Virus record (IMG/VR): IMGVR_UViG_3300033141_000684
Direction: 5' to 3' (one strand)
Length of the DNA stretch: 20,000 bases
Source: an uncultured virus (IMG/VR IMGVR_UViG_3300033141_000684)
Taxonomy: Duplodnaviria > Heunggongvirae > Uroviricota > Caudoviricetes
The stretch's first letter is position 1. Every line of letters starts with the position of its first letter. Shown in pieces: positions 1,354 through 16,946 of this stretch. The notes under the pieces were generated by a model that ran no database searches, had not been told where the DNA came from, and saw only the letters and a program-made list of their open reading frames with translations. The position numbers were made by a program, and so were the translations under genes.

Positions 1354-1639
1354 CGGCGTGCTCGTCGTGGTATTTAATGACGTGCTTGCGCACCGCTTCG
1401 ATCATCTCTTCGCTCACTGGCAGCTCGCGCAGGGCGTGCATCACCGTTGTATGGTGTCGGTTCACGAAGTAACCGATCGACGGCAGCGAAAGCTCTTGAT
1501 CACGCAAGAGCCTCATGGCAAGCCAGCGGGGCGTGACCAGCATCGTCGACCGTGACTTGCCGAGCACTTGCTTCTCAGGCACTCGAAAATAATCGCATAC
1601 GCCTGCAATGATCAGGCTCGGGTCTTGTGGTCTCATCAT
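1346..1639 (-). CDS. stand-alone DnaA C-terminal (domain IV) helix-turn-helix protein
   Basis: IIAGVCDYFRV...VLGKSRS...PRWLAMRLLRD...SLPSIGYFVNRHHTTVMHA follows the Bac_DnaA_C signature (R.R....PRQ.AMYL.R....SL..IG..F.RDHTTV.HA). Confidence 0.85.
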   Translation of the reverse strand: MMRPQDPSLIIAGVCDYFRVPEKQVLGKSRSTMLVTPRWLAMRLLRDQELSLPSIGYFVNRHHTTVMHALRELPVSEEMIEAVRKHVIKYHDEHADD

Positions 1640-3303
1640 TAGAACGGTATCTCGTCTTCGCCGATGCTATCCCAGTCAGGCAGGATAGGCTCGGGCGGTT
1701 TTACAGGTTCGAACGCGAAGTCGTACTTCACGATCCGATCATACTTGCCCTCTTTCCTGACCATGATGCGGCCGGGCTTTTTGAGGTACTCCCGGCCGAG
1801 CAAGACGTGCTCAGTCGTGGATTCTGCCGACGTCGCCGGGTCGATGCCTCGATCGGTCAGCCAGCGGGTCGCCTTCGTCTTCGCATAGCCTTCATGATCA
1901 GGGCAGACCCATTCGTCGAAGAACTGCAGGCCGCAGCGGTAGGTCACCTTGACCGAGTCAGGCTTGCCGAGCTTCTCGTGCCGGCGGTAGGTCACCTCGT
2001 TCACCTCGAACCATTCAGGCTGAGCCAGTGTCGAGATGATCGCTTGCGTGCTTGCCGTCTCTTCGTGCTTGGGCGGCCAGACATACTGACAATGTGGGCA
2101 GATGCGCGCATTGACTGCAACGATCGCATGGCAGTCTGGGCACTCTTTCGTCGGGGCCGTGCCGGCGAGTTCGACCTCGCCTGCAACGCCGCCGAGCTTG
2201 TCGATAATGTTGATCGTGTCGACCGGGCCGTGCCGGTTCACATTGCCGGCGAAGTCGAGCACGAGGCAGTCTTGCTTGCCGTTCTCTGGGTTGAGCCGCA
2301 TGCCTCGGCCGCACATCTGAATATAGAGCGCCGCCGACTGAGTCGGTCTCAAGAAAGCGATCAGGTCGCAGATCGGCGCATCGAAGCCGGTCGTCAAGAT
2401 GTCGCAGTTCGTGAGGCACTTGATCCTGCCGGCCTTGAACTCTGAGATGATATGCTCGCGCTCATCTTTGGGCGTCTCGCCGTGAAGGCATTCAGAGACG
2501 ACGCCGTGCCGCGAGCGCATGAAGTCAGCGACGTCTTGCGCGTACTCGACGCCAGGGCAGAACACGAGCCAGGCGTTGCGGTCTTGGCCGTACTCGACGA
2601 TCTCGGCGCAGGCTGCCACCTTCACGCGGGTCGCCTCGTCGACCATGTCGGACGTCTTGAAGTCGCCGCGCACCGTCTTCATGCCGTCGGTATTCATTCT
2701 CTCGACGCCGGCCTTCGAGATCAGGGGCACGAGATGGCCTTCGTCGATCAGCCTGGTGATCGGCAGGTTGTAGGCGATGTCAGTGAAGAGCGCGTCGTCG
2801 CCAGTATGCAAAAAGCCAGAGTCGAGCCTGAACGGCGTCGCGCTGAAGCCGATGACCTTGACCTTGTCGTTGATGGTCATCATGTCATCGAGAAAGCGCC
2901 GATACATCGTGTCGTTCTTGGCGGGCACGAGATGCGCTTCGTCGATCGTGATCAGGTCGAACCGGCCGAGCTGGTCGGCCTTGTTGTGCACCGATTGAAT
3001 GCCGGCGAAGATCATCGGGTTGAATCGGTCGCGGCGCTTCATGCCGGCGCTGTTGATGCCGATGTCAATCTGCGGGCTGAGCCGCGACATAGTCACCGAG
3101 TTCTGCTCTATCAGCTCTTTGACGTGCGTTAGTGACAGTATGCGCTGGCCCGGCCAGCCGAGAATGACGTCGCTGCAAAAGCTCGCGTGAATGACAGACT
3201 TGCCGCCGCCGGTCGGGACAACAGCCAGCGGGTGACCGTTGTGCGAAGAGAAGTAATTGAAGAGCGCGTTCTTGCACTCTGATTGATAACCTCGAAGCTG
3301 CAC
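1639..3303 (-). CDS. SF2 DEAH helicase, RadD/YejH-like, with zinc finger
   Basis: Q motif LRGYQ, Walker A PTGGGKS, DEAH, SAT, motif V LTTGFDAP, motif VI QMCGRGMR, CPDC..CPHC zinc ribbon, DEIPF end. Start placed at GTG 3303 (TAGTG overlap with the upstream stop, GAGGG RBS) instead of 3348. Confidence 0.93.
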   Translation of the reverse strand: MQLRGYQSECKNALFNYFSSHNGHPLAVVPTGGGKSVIHASFCSDVILGWPGQRILSLTHVKELIEQNSVTMSRLSPQIDIGINSAGMKRRDRFNPMIFAGIQSVHNKADQLGRFDLITIDEAHLVPAKNDTMYRRFLDDMMTINDKVKVIGFSATPFRLDSGFLHTGDDALFTDIAYNLPITRLIDEGHLVPLISKAGVERMNTDGMKTVRGDFKTSDMVDEATRVKVAACAEIVEYGQDRNAWLVFCPGVEYAQDVADFMRSRHGVVSECLHGETPKDEREHIISEFKAGRIKCLTNCDILTTGFDAPICDLIAFLRPTQSAALYIQMCGRGMRLNPENGKQDCLVLDFAGNVNRHGPVDTINIIDKLGGVAGEVELAGTAPTKECPDCHAIVAVNARICPHCQYVWPPKHEETASTQAIISTLAQPEWFEVNEVTYRRHEKLGKPDSVKVTYRCGLQFFDEWVCPDHEGYAKTKATRWLTDRGIDPATSAESTTEHVLLGREYLKKPGRIMVRKEGKYDRIVKYDFAFEPVKPPEPILPDWDSIGEDEIPF

Positions 3304-3623
3304 TAGGTCATCGCCCTCAACTGGTTGGTGAGTTTCGTTCTGAGGCACTTCGCTGCAGACGTGGCTGCGGCGAGCTGCGACTCTAAACTCTCAAGGTAGC
3401 CGTGCCGCTGTAACAACATTTCAGCCGCGAGAACGTGCTCGACCTTGATGGCGTGCGGATTCTCAAGCCGGTATCTGATCGCCTGGGTTGAGATTCCGAG
3501 GGCGCGAGCGACCTCGATGAATCTGGCGTTGTTGGCTCTCGGGTGCGTCTTCGGCAAAGTGTCGGCCAAGCTCTCGACGAGCGTCGCGTACCGATTGCTC
3601 AAAGCAATCTGGCTATTTTCCAT
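3303..3623 (-). CDS. putative HTH DNA-binding protein
   Basis: FIEVARALGISTQAIRYRLENP is HTH-like; coupled to both neighbours. Confidence 0.7.
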   Translation of the reverse strand: MENSQIALSNRYATLVESLADTLPKTHPRANNARFIEVARALGISTQAIRYRLENPHAIKVEHVLAAEMLLQRHGYLESLESQLAAATSAAKCLRTKLTNQLRAMT

Positions 3624-3855
3624 GTCTAACGATCCTGAGATGCTTGCGGCCGGCCCCGAAGTCTAGCACTCCATAGCCGTCTGGTATAGCTTGAACGCAG
3701 CCGCCTTTCTCAAGAAAGGCTTGAACGTCTGCCGCGATCTTGTCTCTGACTCGCTGCTTGTTCTCGACCGGGTCTTCTGCCGCGTCTTGCGCGTGCTTGA
3801 TCGGGCCGCTTGTCGTTGTCATGGGCGCGAGCCCTTTGCCGAATCTACTGCTCAT
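3613..3855 (-). CDS. SutA RNA-polymerase-binding-domain-like protein
   Basis: KQRVRDKIAADVQAFLEKGGCVQAIP resembles the SutA RNAP-binding core (K..ER..L...MEEFL..GG.VQ.I). Confidence 0.65.
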   Translation of the reverse strand: MSSRFGKGLAPMTTTSGPIKHAQDAAEDPVENKQRVRDKIAADVQAFLEKGGCVQAIPDGYGVLDFGAGRKHLRIVRHGK

Positions 3856-4916
3856 TCTGTTACCTCGTGGGTCTCGATTAGTGTGCCGTTGAACTCTTGC
3901 TTCAGCGTGTCGACGACCTCGTCGCCGATCATGTTCTTCGCGTCTGCCTTGTATATCTCGACCGAGCTGTATCCGGTCGGGCCGTTCTTAAATACCTTGC
4001 CGGTGATCTTGTTCGTGTAGACGACGTCGTCGTCGATCGCGTCGATCGGCTCTGCCCACGTCTCAAGCATCTGGGGCAAGTAGGCGTGCGAGGCGCAGCC
4101 GTTCATCTGCTGATTCTTGTCGAGCTGCAGGTTGTACTTCTCGCAGAGCCAGGTCGCCTCACCGTCGGGCGCTGCAGTCGCATGCACGCATGACCTGCAG
4201 GTCGGGACGGGTGCGGCTTTAGAATGGCAGGTCGCGCTATGGTCGCAGAAGTTACACTGCCACCATGCCGGGTCGTCAGAGATGCGCGCCGGCGGTTCGA
4301 CTGACTCGATGATCGTGCGCGCTCGCTCCATGATCTGCACGAACTCTTTCTTGTTGAATTTGACGCGCTCAATGTAGAGGTCGTCGTCATTCTTGTTGAC
4401 GGCCATATAGAGCGCCCGGTCGATTGAGCTGAGGCCCATATAAACCTGCATCTGCGCATAGTGCTCGGGCTTCGACTGCTCGACGCCATCCTTCACGAGT
4501 GACTTGAAGCTCTTATCGTTGTGCGTCTTCATCTCGATAATGTGCGGGCTCTTCGGGGCTTCGGGCACGCCTTCGGTCGCGATGCCGTCACCGCTGCCGC
4601 CGAAGTGACCGCCGTGCGCTGACCATTGCCATTGTTCGCTGGTGCGCGGGTCGATCTCAACGACCTCGACGCCGATGCGCTTCAACTCTTCAACGAAGAC
4701 CGCCTCTTCTCGCTGGCCTCGATTGAACAGGCGCAGCACGCGACCGGGAAAGTTCGCGACCGTCGACCATCTGAACGAATACCAGATTGAGCGCGTGCAC
4801 GGCCGGCCGATGATCGACGCGCCGAGGTGCTCTCTGAATCCGTTGCCGGCCCGGTCTTCCCAGCTCTTGAAGATCAGGTTGCGCGTGTTGTGCGTTGGCT
4901 CGGGCATTACCGCCAT
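3852..4916 (-). CDS. Cas4-like PD-(D/E)xK phage exonuclease with Fe-S cluster cysteines
   Basis: LGASIIGRPC.R, GSGDG...IIEMKT, HYAQMQVYM, CNFCDHSATC, plus an extra CRSC...C...C cluster; Sak4/SSB/helicase neighbourhood. Confidence 0.9.
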   Translation of the reverse strand: MAVMPEPTHNTRNLIFKSWEDRAGNGFREHLGASIIGRPCTRSIWYSFRWSTVANFPGRVLRLFNRGQREEAVFVEELKRIGVEVVEIDPRTSEQWQWSAHGGHFGGSGDGIATEGVPEAPKSPHIIEMKTHNDKSFKSLVKDGVEQSKPEHYAQMQVYMGLSSIDRALYMAVNKNDDDLYIERVKFNKKEFVQIMERARTIIESVEPPARISDDPAWWQCNFCDHSATCHSKAAPVPTCRSCVHATAAPDGEATWLCEKYNLQLDKNQQMNGCASHAYLPQMLETWAEPIDAIDDDVVYTNKITGKVFKNGPTGYSSVEIYKADAKNMIGDEVVDTLKQEFNGTLIETHEVTE

Positions 4917-4947: not shown

Positions 4948-5553
4948 TCATGCCGCTCTTCTGCCGAGTATGTTGTGCTCCGGGTCGAAGACGTCGATCA
5001 ATAGGTATTCTAACTGCGTGAGCTGCCTGTCAGCGAGGCTCGCGCCGTCGACATACAAGACCCCATCGAAGCATTTGTCTTTAATGTGTTGCCCTGATCT
5101 CTGTAATGCGCTCACTCGGCTTTGACCAATATAGACGACAGTCTCTTCGAGCATGAGCAGGTATATGCCCCTGCCGATGACGGGCGAGCGCGAGAATCTT
5201 ATCTCTGAGATCGGCCCGCCTATATCGTAAGGAAAAAACTGATCGCCGTATAACTCGCAGTCTGCTGCGATTGAGACCATTCTGATCTCGGCCTTGATCT
5301 GGTCGGCAACGATCTTTCTCTCGCAATCTTCAGAGCAAGCGAAACGGGCGCTCGACGACGGCGGGCCGTCGTCGTCACTCTCATACTCTCGCAAGTCGCA
5401 GGGCGACCACGTCACGAGCGAAAGCTCGGGCGGATATGGCGCATATAATCTTGACGGGAAAGTTCGCCAACATCCACAACAATGGAGGTCATCGCGAGGG
5501 CCGAACTTTTTCGCGGCGCGACTACCTTGAAGAACTGCTGGAAGTTTTGCCAT
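4948..5553 (-). CDS. GIY-YIG endonuclease with N-terminal Cys-rich (Zn-finger-like) domain
   Basis: RGIYLLMLEETVVYIGQS...QRSGQH...LEYLLIDVFDPEHN has the GIY, YIG, R, H, E and N residues; N-terminal CCGC...FACSEDC. ATG at 5553 overlaps the upstream stop (TGATG). Confidence 0.8.
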   Translation of the reverse strand: MAKLPAVLQGSRAAKKFGPRDDLHCCGCWRTFPSRLYAPYPPELSLVTWSPCDLREYESDDDGPPSSSARFACSEDCERKIVADQIKAEIRMVSIAADCELYGDQFFPYDIGGPISEIRFSRSPVIGRGIYLLMLEETVVYIGQSRVSALQRSGQHIKDKCFDGVLYVDGASLADRQLTQLEYLLIDVFDPEHNILGRRAA

Positions 5554-6530
5554 CACCAAGCCCTCCAAAGATCTCGCAGCAACCGCTTCTGCACGTAACG
5601 GTTCGCTCTGTTGTGAATGTGGCCGACGCTCATATACAAGTGAGCCTCAGCTTTCGGAATCTGGGCCGCCGGCAAAACGATCAGACCCTTCGCTTCTGCG
5701 CGCTCGGTCTCGATCACCTTGCGGGCGTCGCGGGCGTCGCGGTACTTGTTAGCCTTGCGGGTGAGCGCGTCACCGATGACATACATGAGCGAGCGCCTGA
5801 GTGGTGAGTAACCTTGCTCGATGCCTCGCTGCCCGGTCATGCGTCGCTGGCGTTCGCCGTTGATCACCGCCAAACCGAACCGTTTCCAGAGCTTCGACTC
5901 GTTCGAGTAATTGTCGAGCGGGCCTGACTCGCCGATGATCATAGCAAGGCCGAGCGGGCCGAAGCCGTTTATCGGCTCGGCAAACTCTTCCCAGACGGGC
6001 AGCTCTTTGACGACCTTCTTGAGTATGCGCTCGCGTCGCTTTTTCTCAGCCGTGAGCGGCTCACGCGCTTCGAGCATGGGGCCGATGTTCGCCGCAGCGA
6101 TAACACCGAGCGGGTGCTCTTCGTTCTTGACGACGGCAGTGTAGAGCGCCTGGCCTTCTTTCGTACCGCCAGCAAGTCGCCGGCAGATGGACTTCGCCTG
6201 TAGCGTGATTCGCTGCTCTGCGCCCATCATGTCAGAGCGTGCGCGATGGTGCTCCCGCAGCTCTGCGCATAAGATTGCCCGGCCTAATCTGGTATGGTCG
6301 TCTCCGACGGCGCTATAGGGGGCCGGGCTTGAACCTGCAGCGGAACTAGAAGTTTGGTCGGTTTCGACAATGTAGAATTGACCGCTGCGTGACTGGACGC
6401 CTCCCGGCTGGGCGAGCTTTGATTGGCCCTTCTTAGGCACTACTCGGTCGGCCGGGCCGGGGGCGTTAATAGGGTGAGCGGCAACGCTGAGTTTGGCCGC
6501 CTTTGCGGCAATGGTTTTCTGACCGCTCAT
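5553..6530 (-). CDS. TasA-like IS110/Nop-domain RNA-binding protein lacking a nuclease domain
   Basis: Coiled coil (LREHHRARSDMMGAEQRITLQ) then IS116/IS110/IS902-type C-terminal motifs (PINGFGPLGLAMIIGESG..NYSNESKLWKRFGL, GYSPLRRSLMY, HNRANRYVQKRLLRDLWRAW). No DEDD/RuvC domain and no catalytic SG loop after GL. The first ~85 codons coincide with the guide array. Confidence 0.85.
   Translation of the reverse strand: MSGQKTIAAKAAKLSVAAHPINAPGPADRVVPKKGQSKLAQPGGVQSRSGQFYIVETDQTSSSAAGSSPAPYSAVGDDHTRLGRAILCAELREHHRARSDMMGAEQRITLQAKSICRRLAGGTKEGQALYTAVVKNEEHPLGVIAAANIGPMLEAREPLTAEKKRRERILKKVVKELPVWEEFAEPINGFGPLGLAMIIGESGPLDNYSNESKLWKRFGLAVINGERQRRMTGQRGIEQGYSPLRRSLMYVIGDALTRKANKYRDARDARKVIETERAEAKGLIVLPAAQIPKAEAHLYMSVGHIHNRANRYVQKRLLRDLWRAW
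6277..6529 (-). ncRNA. TIGR-like stem-loop guide RNA array, 4 units
   Basis: Minus-strand units share stem-(CCA-like)-N9-(TG-like)-hairpin-CCA-N9/10-(TG-like)-stem. U1 6475-6529: TGAGCGG TCA GAAAACCAT TG CCGC AAAG GCGG CCA AACTCAGCGT TG CCGCTCA. U2 6398-6465: CGCCCCCGGCCCGG CCG ACCGAGTAG TG CCT AAGA AGG G CCA ATCAAAGCT CG CCCAGCCGGGAGGCG. U3 6337-6388: GCAGCGG TCA ATTCTACAT TG TCG AAAC CGA CCA AACTTCTAG TT CCGCTGC. U4 6277-6328: GCCCGGC CCC CTATAGCGC CG TCG GAGA CGA CCA TACCAGATT AG GCCGGGC. Confidence 0.85.
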
Positions 6531-7045
6531 AATCCGAACCTCGTCGCGAGGTTGCTCAACTGTTGCTCACCGAACACTTCGGCGACCGTGCGGTTACCGA
6601 CCCGGTAGAGCAGGTTCGCGTAGAACGCGCCGAGATTGCTCTCGTTGCGGGCTCGATCTTTGTGGTGATCGGCTGCGCGAGAGAGTAAGTCGCGGTTGGC
6701 ATCACCGAGGCGTGAGCCGTTGAAGAGCTTCATGTCGAGCATGCTGCGACGGCCGGCTGCGACGAGCGCCGGGTCTGGTTGCCGGGGCTCGATCTTGACG
6801 ACCTTAGTCGAAGGCGTCGGCTCTTTGGTGACGACGTCGGTCGCTGGCTTATCTAGCTGCTTGATCAGCTCCCAGATAGCGAGGTCTAACTTCGGGCGCA
6901 AGAGCGTCTTAAAGAGAACACTGTCGGCCATCACTCGCCGCTCGATCGCTTCGGCGGCTTCGGTTCTGGTCGCTGACTCTTCGATGATTTTAATCGCCAT
7001 CGAGCGCAGGCGTGTCAGAGCGAGCGGGTCTTTCTCAGTTTGCAT
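6527..7045 (-). CDS. hypothetical protein coupled to the Tas-like gene (candidate accessory factor)
   Basis: 172 aa; its TGA overlaps the Tas ATG (ATGA); helical N-domain, Pro/Thr linker, C-domain MLDMKLFNGSRLGDANRDLL...TVAEVFGEQQL. Confidence 0.75.
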   Translation of the reverse strand: MQTEKDPLALTRLRSMAIKIIEESATRTEAAEAIERRVMADSVLFKTLLRPKLDLAIWELIKQLDKPATDVVTKEPTPSTKVVKIEPRQPDPALVAAGRRSMLDMKLFNGSRLGDANRDLLSRAADHHKDRARNESNLGAFYANLLYRVGNRTVAEVFGEQQLSNLATRFGL

Positions 7046-7304
7046 CGCGAACCTCTCTGCGTTCTTCTGCGACGCCTGCGTAATAGTAGCCGGCTTGCTG
7101 GGCGGCGTGGTTGCGCTTGTTGCGCTCAGCGCGTCGGTTGCGCTTGCGGTTCGCCTTTATCTGCATCTCGATCACCGTGTCGGGGCTCGGCTTGGGCGGC
7201 ATTATTGTGCGACCGCTTGGCTCGCCGACTGCGCGTTCGAGCGCGTCAGAGATCGCCTTGAAAAAACCGGCCTGGTGTTGCCGTGCAACTTGTTTCTGTT
7301 TCAT
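7035..7304 (-). CDS. basic hypothetical protein (89 aa)
   Basis: AAGGCAGGA RBS upstream; Arg/Lys-rich NRKRNRRAERNKRN; overlaps the next ORF. Confidence 0.65.
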   Translation of the reverse strand: MKQKQVARQHQAGFFKAISDALERAVGEPSGRTIMPPKPSPDTVIEMQIKANRKRNRRAERNKRNHAAQQAGYYYAGVAEERREVRDAN

Positions 7305-7396: not shown

Positions 7397-7936
7397 TTAC
7401 TGAGCCCATGCCGGCCTGTCGCCTGCAGCGGGCGCTACTGGCGGGGCCGTATTGGCTACACCCTGAGCGGGTGCGACTGGGGCGGGCGCGGCCTGTTGTC
7501 CGACGGGTGTCGGGGCTGCGCCGCCCATAGCTGGGGCTAGAGCCGACGCCTTGAACTTCTTGATGATGTTCTTGTCGTCGTACTGGCCGGTCTTGTCGAC
7601 CTCGATGCCGACCGCACCGATGAACGGCTTGTCGTGCAACTGCGTGCTATCGCTGACCTGCATCACGCCGACAGCTCGGCAAAGGCCAGACAGCTCGCGC
7701 TGACCGATCTCTTCTGCGGTCGGGTTCTGGTTTGCGATGTTGATGCGGCCGAAAATCTTGCGGCCGGCATACTGACCCTCAAGCACCTCGGCCTCGTATT
7801 CGAGATAGTGTCCGGTGCCGGCCTTGGTCGGCTTGATGTCGGTCGAGCGAATGCAGAGCAAATAGTCGCCTTTCGGGAAGGTATCGTATGAGCTGCTCGG
7901 GTCTACTTGGGAAGCGTCAAAATTCATTTGAGCCAT
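7397..7936 (-). CDS. DUF669-family phage single-stranded DNA-binding protein
   Basis: MNFDASQVDP..YDTFPKGDY...K.TKAGTGHYL...VLEGQYAGRKIF..INI.NQNPTAEEIGQRELSGLCRAVG; Pro/Ala tail ending PAW; follows the Sak4-like gene. Confidence 0.88.
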   Translation of the reverse strand: MAQMNFDASQVDPSSSYDTFPKGDYLLCIRSTDIKPTKAGTGHYLEYEAEVLEGQYAGRKIFGRINIANQNPTAEEIGQRELSGLCRAVGVMQVSDSTQLHDKPFIGAVGIEVDKTGQYDDKNIIKKFKASALAPAMGGAAPTPVGQQAAPAPVAPAQGVANTAPPVAPAAGDRPAWAQ

Positions 7937-8085: not shown

Positions 8086-8904
8086 TTACCCGGCAGCCGC
8101 CACCTGATCACCCTCGTCGGGCGCTGCAGGTTCAGGCTGGGGTTGTGCCGCTGAGGTCTTGCGCGTCAGCGCGAGCGCCTCTTCGAAGGCCTGCCAGTTC
8201 AACGGCAGCTCTTCGGGCAGAGAGTATCGGTTCTTCGCAACAAAGGCCGGCTTCTCGACGGTATACATGACACGCTCGCCGGTCGTAATGCCTCGGGCGC
8301 GTGACTTGTTGAAGCCCTGGTCTTCTTTCAAGACGTGCATCTTGTGATTAGCGAAGAGGATGACATCGACAAGCTCTTGCACCATGCCGTTAGCCCGCTT
8401 GTGCAACTTGATGTCGTAGCGGTCGAAGGCTTCGTGCTCTGGCGATTCGAACTTGAGAATCTGCGCGTGCGCCGTCAGGATCACCGCCATATTCTTGTGA
8501 TTGCGAAGCGCGTCGAGCAACCAGATAATCTGACGCCAATAGACGTCGGCCTCAACATAGCCCTTGCCGTAGCCGGGGCTCTCGATAGAGTCCCAGCCGT
8601 GGGCCTCGCAGGTCTTTTGCCAGACGAGCGGCTCAAGGTGATCGAGCGAGTCGATGACGACGGTCTTATAGTCGTGGTCACCCTCGCCGAGCGCGTTAAG
8701 CGCAGAGATGACGTCGTCGTAGCTCTGAGCTATGCCGAAAGTGTCGATCTCAAGTGAGCCTTCACCGTCTTCGGTTTGAATGAAGATAGGCTTCGGCGCG
8801 TTCGCTGCGAACGTCGTCTTGCCCATGCCGTGCGTCGAATAAATCAACGTGCGCGGCGGTTTGGTGTCGCTAGTGCGACGAATTGAATCGAGGGCGAATG
8901 CCAT
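8086..8904 (-). CDS. Sak4-like AAA_24 ATPase (phage single-strand annealing protein)
   Basis: PPRTLIYSTHGMGKTTFAANAPKPIFIQTEDG (Walker A), YKTVVIDSLDHLE (Walker B), GYGKGY, AKNRYSLP. Confidence 0.9.
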   Translation of the reverse strand: MAFALDSIRRTSDTKPPRTLIYSTHGMGKTTFAANAPKPIFIQTEDGEGSLEIDTFGIAQSYDDVISALNALGEGDHDYKTVVIDSLDHLEPLVWQKTCEAHGWDSIESPGYGKGYVEADVYWRQIIWLLDALRNHKNMAVILTAHAQILKFESPEHEAFDRYDIKLHKRANGMVQELVDVILFANHKMHVLKEDQGFNKSRARGITTGERVMYTVEKPAFVAKNRYSLPEELPLNWQAFEEALALTRKTSAAQPQPEPAAPDEGDQVAAAG

Positions 8905-12588: not shown

Positions 12589-12600
12589 ATCAGAATGGCA

Positions 12601-12800
12601 TTGCAAAGTTATGTCAGAGTTCGGTCGGAGTTGTCGGAAAGATTTGCTAAGTCATTGATTTTAAAGGTGTGCAAAGTTCAAAGTAGTTGTCGGAAAGAAT
12701 TTTTAAGTGCTTGATTTTAAAGAACAAAGTTTTCAGAGTTTTTCTATATATAAATATATAAATATATTTGGGTGTCAGTACACCCCAAAATATATATTTA
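12601..12800. other. putative replication origin (direct repeats, IHF sites, AT-rich palindrome)
   Basis: 38-bp direct repeat at 12629-12666 and 12685-12722 (33/38 identical); repeated CARAGTT heptamers; two WATCAANNNNTTR matches on the minus strand (12648-12660, 12704-12716); TA-rich imperfect inverted repeat ~12759-12800; directly after the primase-helicase. Confidence 0.7.
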
Positions 12801-14010: not shown

Positions 14011-14291
14011 GCATGACATTCACCGACAAAGAGATCGACGCACTGCGAAAGGTCTATAGCCAATGGGTCGACGAGGTCTTCATGAAAAGCCAATGGGTCG
14101 ACGAGGTCTTCATGAAAGACTCCACCGGCTCGGCCGAAACGCACTCACTGCGCACGATCGCCTCGACGGCGATCACCAAGATCGCAGCAAGTCGTGAGCC
14201 GCTTGTCGAGCCAGACCCGAAAGAAGAGATCACGGTCACGATCACCTTCATAGGCGAAAAGCCGGAGGTGAAGACATGGTCAAGATCATAA
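14007..14291 (+). CDS. hypothetical protein with internal 10-aa duplication
   Basis: ATGA overlap with the upstream ORF; SQWVDEVFMK occurs twice. Confidence 0.65.
   Translation: MSMTFTDKEIDALRKVYSQWVDEVFMKSQWVDEVFMKDSTGSAETHSLRTIASTAITKIAASREPLVEPDPKEEITVTITFIGEKPEVKTWSRS
14058..14117 (+). repeat. perfect 30-bp tandem duplication
   Basis: AGCCAATGGGTCGACGAGGTCTTCATGAAA at 14058-14087 and 14088-14117. Confidence 0.97.
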
Positions 14292-16213: not shown

Positions 16214-16501
16214 ATGCTGCACCTCTTCGTTTTTCAGGCGGGCAACCGTACCGTCGGGGTCGAGGCTTACCATCGAGAGCAAGCCGAAGAGCTGGCCGGT
16301 ATGACCGATCTAATTTACTGCGCCTCGTTGCGCATTAACGGAGGCGAGTCGAAGGTCGTGTTCAGGGCTTACGCCAACGAGCGCACGAACGCCTACCCGT
16401 TCGAGGTGGACAGCGAAGGGCCAGACTTCTGCGCCTGCAGAAAGATGGGCCAGCCGAGGCAGGGCTGCAAGTCATACGGCCGAGGCGCATGCCGTGACTG
16501 A
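16214..16501 (+). CDS. hypothetical protein with Cys-rich C-terminus
   Basis: GGGG RBS; FCAC...GC...AC; overlaps the RusA-like gene start. Confidence 0.6.
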   Translation: MLHLFVFQAGNRTVGVEAYHREQAEELAGMTDLIYCASLRINGGESKVVFRAYANERTNAYPFEVDSEGPDFCACRKMGQPRQGCKSYGRGACRD

Positions 16502-16946
16502 GGCTGCACCCTGGCAAACACCGCCAGCTCAGAAGACGCGCCTCAACGATGTCGTCACCACGACGACCGAAATCGGCAACAAGATCAGGCACGAGATTCT
16601 GATCGACCCGGTCGCCAAGCCGAGGCAGACGCAGCGCGACAAGTGGAACCCGAGCAAGGCGGTCATTAAATATCGCGCCTATGCAGACAAGCTAAGGTCG
16701 ACCGGCCTGACTATTCCCGAAGCCGGCTATCACATTACCTTCATTCTGCCCATGCCGAAGAGCTGGGCGAAGAGCAAACGGGCTGCAAAGGATGGCGGCC
16801 CCCACCAACAAAGACCCGATAAGGACAATCTTGAGAAAGCAGTGCTCGACGCACTCTTCAAAGAAGACAGCCATGTCTGGGACGGCCGCGCAACTAAAAT
16901 CTGGGGCGAGGTCGGCAAGATAATAATCGAGTACGAGGTGCTGTAA
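16494..16946 (+). CDS. rusA: RusA-like Holliday junction resolvase
   Basis: PVAKPRQT, FILPMPKSW.K.KR, HQQRPDKDNLEKAVLDALF.EDSHVWD....KIWG (RusA D.DN..K...D motif). Confidence 0.88.
   Translation: MTEAAPWQTPPAQKTRLNDVVTTTTEIGNKIRHEILIDPVAKPRQTQRDKWNPSKAVIKYRAYADKLRSTGLTIPEAGYHITFILPMPKSWAKSKRAAKDGGPHQQRPDKDNLEKAVLDALFKEDSHVWDGRATKIWGEVGKIIIEYEVL

Follow-up and report, generated by a model that had tools for sequence, protein, structure and literature searches.

Does a phage gene that directly follows a nuclease-less tas gene supply a nuclease to the Tas system, or is it an independent gene that came to lie there? The question is raised by a stretch of 20,000 nucleotides from an uncultured virus of the class Caudoviricetes (IMG/VR record IMGVR_UViG_3300033141_000684), hereafter called the window, in which an open reading frame (ORF) of 201 codons, ORF201, overlaps the end of a gene for a Tas protein of the TasA type. 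The initial annotation suggested that the Tas ribonucleoprotein recruits the GIY-YIG nuclease encoded by ORF201 in trans, and named a free-standing homing endonuclease that mobilizes the cassette as the alternative. We conclude that ORF201 is probably a free-standing, self-sufficient GIY-YIG phage endonuclease, a cargo gene confined to this lineage and gained fairly recently. That it follows tasA is best read, from the comparison of loci, as a lineage-specific accident of a variable slot and not as an architecture of the system. The elements in question are the following.

Positions 4948-5553, minus strand: ORF201, 201 amino acids, from ATG 5553-5551 to TGA 4950-4948.
Positions 4960-5196, minus strand: GIY-YIG nuclease domain of ORF201, residues ~120-198, with the catalytic set Y131, Y141, R152, H156, E182 and N194 and the DKxFD motif of the subfamily.
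Positions 5553-6530, minus strand: TasA-type Tas protein, 325 amino acids, with no nuclease domain; it ends at W325 and has no tail.
Positions 6527-7045, minus strand: p172, 172 amino acids, of no known family; its stop codon overlaps the Tas start (ATGA).

The GIY-YIG domain at the C-terminus of ORF201, which the initial annotation had recognized, is borne out by the relatives of the protein, its invariant residues, profile comparison and structure prediction, all of which agree. ORF201 itself has no Pfam match at E<=0.1 (below the gathering cut-off) and no match in PHROG or NCBIfam, and a word-based search of 5.8 billion proteins returned ORF201 alone. Among 1.84 billion representatives, searched exhaustively with phmmer, 32 weak relatives emerged, with E-values from 7e-7 to 9e-4, and none stronger. 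They align to approximately residues 55-199 of ORF201, mostly to 117-198. Pfam GIY-YIG models match 25 of the 32 at E<=0.01, and 13 and 10 of them fall into phrog_1111 and phrog_16880, respectively, both annotated as 'endonuclease'. Relatives of ORF201 are absent from 50,697 phage records. In the 32-row alignment, Y131, Y141, G143, R152, H156 and E182 are invariant and N194 is kept in at least 90% of the rows. The conserved tyrosines lie about ten residues apart in the motifs G129-I130-Y131 and V140-Y141-I142-G143. The two tyrosines together with Arg, His, Glu and Asn form the full catalytic set of the GIY-YIG superfamily. A profile built from the alignment matches the GIY-YIG domain of UvrC at 1e-7, and because of this match and of the Pfam matches of the relatives we place ORF201 in the superfamily.

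The AlphaFold2 (AF2) model of ORF201 contains the β-β-α-β-α core fold, with strands at residues 129-135, 138-145 and 164-169 and helices at 149-158 and 175-189; the predicted local distance difference test score (pLDDT) exceeds 90 for residues 120-195. The top Foldseek matches of the model are the UvrC GIY-YIG domain (probability 1.00, template modelling score normalized to the target 0.59-0.68), R.Eco29kI and T4 EndoII. The predicted nuclease assignment is sound, and on sequence grounds ORF201 is a new, sequence-isolated member of the GIY-YIG endonucleases. Libraries of defence systems gave only marginal matches of PADLOC PDC-S14 (E 0.002), to the nuclease domain, and a protein atlas search gave sub-threshold leads only. 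The C-terminal placement of the domain, described initially as atypical, is real but carries little weight, since the position varies within the subfamily: the domain is N-terminal in some relatives and lies behind an N-terminal region in others, two of which have a helix-turn-helix (HTH) there.

The nuclease gene is not linked to Tas outside this phage. We examined 80 viral loci and 31 loci from genomes, 111 in all, that encode relatives of the window Tas; two are 100% copies, and the others are 30-57% identical (the set was not de-duplicated). A tblastn search with ORF201 found the gene in two of them only (L001 and L002), both 100% copies of the same phage, and a hidden Markov model (HMM) of the GIY-YIG subfamily, run over all stop-to-stop ORFs of at least 50 amino acids, found the same two. 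By both methods an ORF201-type gene occurs in 0 of the 109 non-self loci; the gene neighbourhoods thus reveal no repeated pairing of TasA with a GIY-YIG gene beyond the self copies, and the proposed recruitment of the nuclease in trans is not supported, as close Tas homologues lack the gene. ORFs lie directly downstream of Tas in 105 loci. After removal of the two self copies, 17 ORFs shorter than 60 amino acids and 12 evident duplicates, 74 were scanned with Pfam, and none encodes a GIY-YIG domain. The downstream ORFs are heterogeneous and include tail, terminase, integrase, ERF, YqaJ, NinB and Ros/MucR proteins. When all ORFs within 2.5 kb of Tas in the 111 loci were clustered all against all, the largest downstream family comprised five loci. 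The one cultured phage with a Tas relative, Rhizobium phage RHph_X2_25, has the pair next to a repressor gene and no nuclease after it. A reverse survey from the GIY-YIG relatives P0128, P0133 and P0123 recovered one, zero and zero viral loci, too few to use. The literature searched holds no paper that mentions GIY-YIG and TIGR-Tas together, and the term 'GIY' is absent from the accessible text, supplements apart, of PMC12045711 and bioRxiv 10.64898/2026.09.09.750476.

The nearest syntenic phage, that of locus L003, carries a different gene in the slot of ORF201. Its Tas, Sak4, Cas4 exonuclease and helicase are 57%, 77%, 65% and 67% identical to those of the window, and its gene order is p172-Tas-X-exonuclease, where X is a homologue of a small gene found elsewhere in the window. 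The GIY-YIG profile A1 has no match in the 37.6 kb available of this phage and scores 2e-32 on a positive control; A1 was used because Pfam PF01541 is uninformative here, as it also misses ORF201 in the control. The small window gene, at 522-851 on the minus strand, encodes a 109-amino-acid protein with an N-terminal Cys cluster and lies far downstream of Tas, and its homologue in L003 (5780-6145, 60% identical) directly follows Tas. Small genes therefore appear to shuffle among the slots of the operon.

In 22 more distant relatives, the gap between the single-strand-binding protein (SSB) gene and the exonuclease gene is mostly about 100-600 bp, compared with 2.48 kb in the window, and the subfamily HMM found nothing better than E 0.27. 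The small gap in these phages and the gene order in L003 indicate that p172-Tas-X is an insert in the core of the phage, and that X is its variable end. ORF201 would accordingly occupy the last slot, a variable one, of the cassette formed by the two genes p172 and TasA, which was itself inserted into a conserved recombination module (Sak4, DUF669 SSB, Cas4 exonuclease and helicase). ORF201 would share its transcript with TasA. Translational coupling to TasA is possible too, as it is between most genes of the operon and the gene upstream, yet ORF201 would not depend on TasA. Most likely it cuts DNA alone, like the selfish or competition nucleases of phages that act in homing-like processes or marker exclusion. 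The gene is more AT-rich than its surroundings, as had been noticed initially: its G+C content is 0.541, against 0.57-0.61 in most neighbours, and its G+C content at third codon positions (GC3) is 0.614, against 0.70-0.81.

The conserved partner of Tas is encoded upstream. Members of the p172 family occur in 74 of the 111 loci, and in all but one of these (73) the gene precedes Tas on the same strand. In 17 further loci another family (median length 231 amino acids) lies upstream, which brings the two together to 91 of 111; in several of the remaining 20, Tas lies at the contig edge. The p172 family matches no Pfam family and, by profile, no entry of the PDB, and a ParB match was found in 0 of 44 members. 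By its distribution, p172 looks like the conserved partner of the TasA clade of the window.

The Tas protein lacks a nuclease domain, in agreement with the initial annotation. It matches TaTasR (PDB 9MTY) at E 3.8e-10 and NCBIfam NF052498 ('TIGR-Tas system RNA-guided endonuclease', TIGR_Tas_endo) with 93.6 bits, just below the cut-off of 100. Its AF2 model (mean pLDDT 85) retrieves TasR and TasH, then IS621, in Foldseek. Residues 1-77 are disordered, and residues 78-325 form a coiled coil and a C-terminal RNA-binding domain with a Nop-type fold, almost entirely helical with two 3-residue strands only. A disordered N-terminus and a nearly all-helical remainder leave no room for RuvC or HNH, hence the assignment to the nuclease-less TasA type. 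According to the accessible text of the respective preprints, TasA is an RNA-guided transcriptional repressor that acts by binding alone and has no nuclease (Xu et al. 2026, bioRxiv 10.64898/2026.09.09.750476), and the structure of a TasA complex has been solved (Guan et al. 2026, bioRxiv 10.64898/2026.08.11.744272).

The junction between the two genes, from which a coupling of nuclease and Tas was initially suspected, contains these elements.

Positions 5562-5566, minus strand: GGAGG Shine-Dalgarno-like site, 8 nt before ATG 5553, built by the Tas codons W322-R323 (TGG AGG).
Positions 5416-5553, minus strand: ORF201 codons 1-46, with C24, C25 and C27; open, but compositionally like the Tas frame (+1) rather than the ORF201 frame.
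Positions 5412-5415, minus strand: GTGA, in which GTG 5415-5413 (ORF201 codon 47) overlaps the second in-frame Tas TGA, 5414-5412; the coding signal switches frame here.

The ORF found mechanically opens at TTG 5568, and counted from the ATG it encodes 201 amino acids. The Tas stop TGA 5555-5553 and the ATG 5553-5551 of ORF201 share one base, so that TGATG at 5551-5555 on the minus strand is a genuine stop/start overlap. It is not unusual: successive minus-strand ORFs of the operon overlap at 10 of 16 junctions, although this count is taken from mechanical ORFs with the most upstream start chosen and may be inflated. TGATG is therefore the local norm and nothing special. The 8-nt spacing of the Shine-Dalgarno-like site is likewise typical for genes of the phage, and given this site the long form of 201 residues may well be made today. 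The true N-terminus of ORF201 is uncertain and may correspond to ATG 5553, GTG 5415 or a later start (ATG 5283).

The first 46 codons of ORF201 do not resemble an evolved coding sequence in their own frame. We scored codons by log-odds of in-frame versus off-frame frequencies, trained on 15 confident genes of the window with leave-one-out; as the score comes from our own script and training set, with overlapping windows over a short region, it is good evidence and not proof. For ORF201, the first three windows of 30 codons give -0.24, -0.23 and -0.21, lower than the minimum of 352 real-gene windows (-0.19); in the Tas frame, continued beyond the TGA, the same DNA reaches +0.35, higher than the maximum of 692 off-frame windows (0.12). 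GC3 of codons 1-23 is 0.43 in the ORF201 frame against 0.78 in the Tas frame. At codon 47, GC3 in the ORF201 frame climbs from 0.39 to 0.83 (codons 47-70), and the codon scores turn positive near codon 47 and become strongly positive near codon 80. On this evidence it is possible that GTG 5415 is the ancestral or true start, giving 155 amino acids.

The window Tas alone ends directly after W325, whereas in all 107 other rows of the Tas alignment the protein runs on, the shortest extension being 2 residues and the longest more than 68. Of the 105 homologues whose alignment reaches residue 325, 90 have Arg next, and the window has TGA in its place. Past this stop the Tas frame stays open for 46 further codons of coding-like composition, up to the second TGA at 5414-5412. 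Homology of this continuation to other Tas tails, which are hypervariable, was not found. The simplest account of these sequences is that Tas formerly had a 47-residue tail ending in the GTGA junction with the nuclease gene, and that a new stop codon severed it. The truncation looks recent, as far as the sequence tells. Codons 1-46 of ORF201 would then probably be the former Tas tail in a shifted frame, and so would the CxxC half of the zinc finger that the initial annotation placed before the nuclease domain. The cysteines of that zinc finger are present (C24-x2-C27 and C73-x3-C77), but no phmmer relative spans residues 1-54, the first ~115 residues have no relative anywhere, pLDDT is below 50 for residues 1-58, and codons 1-46 are non-coding-like in the ORF201 frame. 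The zinc finger is thus doubtful and should not be counted on.

The guide RNAs of the clade were characterized in the same 111 loci. A unit scan found 243 stem-loop tigRNA units, compared with six in one shuffle per locus, and 234 of the 243 are on the Tas strand. Relative to tas, the units cluster in the 1 kb upstream, in its variable 5' portion or in the 500 nt downstream, and some encode the Tas tail. Alignment A4 of 128 units has eight invariant box positions. A unit consists of an outer stem, CCA, 9 nt, T/C-G, a 4-nt loop or an 8-12-nt mini-hairpin, CCA, 9 nt, T/C-G and the outer stem. The outer stem covaries, with 87.5% of cells paired against 51% in shuffles, where only the outer five pairs are independent since the scan demands the inner five. 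Judged by these units, the Tas clade of the window is a stem-loop TIGR clade. The units agree with the statement, in the accessible text of bioRxiv 10.64898/2026.09.09.750476, that stem-loop arrays can sit within tas.

The window contains no strict unit, and its two relaxed units, against 1.97 expected, are not near Tas. No tandem array was found in the window, and thus there is no dual-repeat TIGR array near Tas. The best window match of the covariance model R1 has 15.2 bits (E 0.27), compared with 20-44 bits for real units elsewhere. Two structured segments were considered.

Positions 6334-6391, minus strand: candidate degenerate tigRNA unit in Tas codons ~47-66, within the disordered region; 7.7 bits, fold z -3.1.
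Positions 5352-5375, minus strand: perfect 9-bp G+C hairpin with a 4-nt loop in ORF201 codons 60-67, an acidic/Pro/Ser stretch; the best R1 match (15.2 bits), fold z -2.8, not significant.

In the candidate unit, an outer stem of 7 bp encloses two spacers of 9 nt each and, at the centre, a mini-hairpin of 3 bp with a loop of 4 nt, of the kind found in those units of the clade whose centre is 10 nt long. Two positions invariant in the 128 units are altered, one in the first box C and one in the last box D. At the corresponding place the L003 phage carries three units that are better (L148, 11482-11671). With its tail lost and no canonical guide, the Tas system of the phage may be eroding, which would further weaken the case for a nuclease-recruiting ribonucleoprotein. 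The hairpin at 5352-5375 was not counted as a tigRNA unit, as it resembles only the outer stem of the clade's units, with no guide core. It was also rejected as a terminator: no U-run follows it, and the terminator scan did not call it.

Compared with known nucleases, ORF201 is closest to the small phage GIY-YIG endonucleases of phrog_1111 and phrog_16880 (PF01541/PF20815). It shares with the 32 aligned relatives the catalytic domain and the DKxFD motif, and several of these also carry the domain behind an N-terminal region, an HTH in two. It differs from them in falling below every library threshold and in its first ~115 residues, which are without relatives. I-TevI and T4 Seg are free-standing phage GIY-YIG homing endonucleases with an N-terminal GIY-YIG domain and a C-terminal DNA-binding domain. 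Like such homing endonucleases, ORF201 lies between conserved genes, is missing from the slot in a relative and has a lower G+C content than its surroundings. Of the homing alternative named initially, the free-standing part is closer to the evidence; the part in which the nuclease mobilizes the cassette is not, as about 90 loci have the p172-Tas cassette and no such nuclease.

Several observations weigh against reading ORF201 as an independent cargo nuclease. ORF201 shares an operon with TasA and directly follows it. None of the 37 Tas homologues with Arg at the position of R323 uses AGG there, and the unusual AGG within GGAGG hints at selection for expression directly after Tas; a functional tie confined to this phage is conceivable. 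The presence or absence of the gene at the same slot is shown by the comparison with L003 only. In contrast to I-TevI and Seg, the domain order of ORF201 is reversed (residues 120-198 of 201) and no DNA-binding module is recognizable. Close copies in unrelated genomes were not found, only 99-100% copies in the same phage, which argues against an actively spreading homing endonuclease. The activity, target and independent action of ORF201 are what we infer, and any mobility of the gene is putative.

The points that tie ORF201 to Tas could instead indicate a two-part RNA-guided nuclease, in which the nuclease-less TasA ribonucleoprotein finds a DNA target and recruits ORF201 in trans. The adjacent same-strand genes with their stop/start overlap, the good Shine-Dalgarno site inside the 3' end of tas with its unusual AGG codon, and the intact catalytic residues would all fit such a pair. 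A partner is also conceivable from the known Tas nucleases TasR and TasH, in which, according to the accessible text of PMC12045711, a RuvC or HNH nuclease, respectively, is fused in cis to the N-terminus of Tas and conserved within the clade. ORF201 resembles these systems in that a Tas protein with a Nop domain and a nuclease are encoded at one locus, but it is a separate downstream gene, belongs to a different nuclease superfamily and is found in one lineage only. The window system is likewise comparable to the TasA and tasParB operons (Faure et al. 2025, PMC12045711, as far as its accessible text describes them), which also combine a nuclease-less TasA with a conserved operon partner; it departs from them in that the partner is p172, which is devoid of a ParB signature and goes with stem-loop and not dual-repeat arrays. 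Since the gene is missing from the 109 other loci, the conserved partner lies upstream, overlaps are usual in the operon, TasA represses transcription without a nuclease, and the window holds one degenerate unit and no canonical tigRNA, we regard recruitment in trans as very improbable. Moreover, the 46 N-terminal residues, the obvious candidate for docking, are unlike an evolved coding sequence. A variant of the same idea reads these features as signs of youth: a tail-truncated TasA would have captured the GIY-YIG gene, with the first 46 codons overprinted on the old tail and the Shine-Dalgarno site placed in the last Tas codons. We give this version a slightly smaller chance still.

Two further explanations concern ORF201 itself. 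It might be a structure-specific or repair nuclease, similar to UvrC or Slx1, that serves the recombination-replication module and is not selfish. Its place in the middle of the module, among Sak4, SSB, Cas4 exonuclease and helicase, and the UvrC N-terminal domains as its nearest solved structures by both profile and fold are consistent with such a role. UvrC is, however, the best-populated GIY-YIG structure, the module functions without ORF201 in L003 and the 22 distant relatives, and a RusA resolvase is already present; we consider the repair role unlikely. ORF201 might also be a decaying remnant, or be expressed as a shorter product only (from GTG 5415 or ATG 5283), or not at all. The codon statistics of codons 1-46, which favour the Tas frame, and the low pLDDT of residues 1-58 speak for decay, as does the variation among near-identical copies. 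All other copies of ORF201 are 99.3-100% identical and in contigs of the same phage, with codons 1-160 unchanged. Their only differences (L113 and L117; window positions 5063-5073) are three non-synonymous changes, and no synonymous one, that result in C161D and G164A, whereas the flanking exonuclease gene has solely synonymous changes between near-identical copies. The substitutions are at the two variable, non-conserved positions of the DKxFDx motif, and all conserved residues of the domain are kept. Together with the codon scores, positive from about codon 47 onwards, and the good Shine-Dalgarno site before ATG 5553, this leaves a low probability for decay. We therefore retain the reading of ORF201 as a free-standing, lineage-specific phage endonuclease.

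According to the ORF list and library matches, a single long replication and recombination operon occupies the minus strand between about 10,000 and 500, and the genes discussed here belong to it. Synteny defines Sak4-SSB-exonuclease-helicase as the conserved core of the phage.

Positions 8086-8904, minus strand: Sak4-like AAA_24 protein, a member of the operon.
Positions 7397-7936, minus strand: DUF669 single-strand-binding protein, a member of the operon.
Positions 7035-7304, minus strand: small ORF between the SSB and p172 genes.
Positions 3852-4916, minus strand: Cas4-domain (PD-(D/E)XK) exonuclease (phrog_1990, 3e-99).
Positions 1639-3348, minus strand: helicase, a member of the recombination core.

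The exonuclease gene starts 31 nt past ORF201. The plus strand encodes a primase/helicase and the RusA resolvase (16494-16946). Near-identical contigs of the phage were found in one metagenome collection as well as in IMG/VR. An AT-rich segment (12589-12770, G+C content 0.45) lies in the intergenic space between the primase gene and the plus-strand genes that come next. It includes a TA-rich run and a pair of 38-nt direct repeats spaced 56 nt apart, and is possibly an origin or a promoter region. An exact 30-nt tandem duplication, present in two copies, lies at 14058-14117 within a plus-strand ORF region.

A real coupling of ORF201 to Tas would add a third nuclease class and a trans-acting design to TIGR-Tas, and if the pair were a young two-part system, the Tas scaffold would have recruited a nuclease independently for the third time, here at a stage before fusion. 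As the linkage is not conserved, what was found amounts to an ordinary accessory endonuclease of a phage. The locus is more informative about the make-up and decay of TasA systems: the clade appears to combine TasA with the partner p172 and with a sharply defined stem-loop guide that often lies inside tas, and the phage studied here seems to carry an eroded copy, with its tail lost and no canonical guide.

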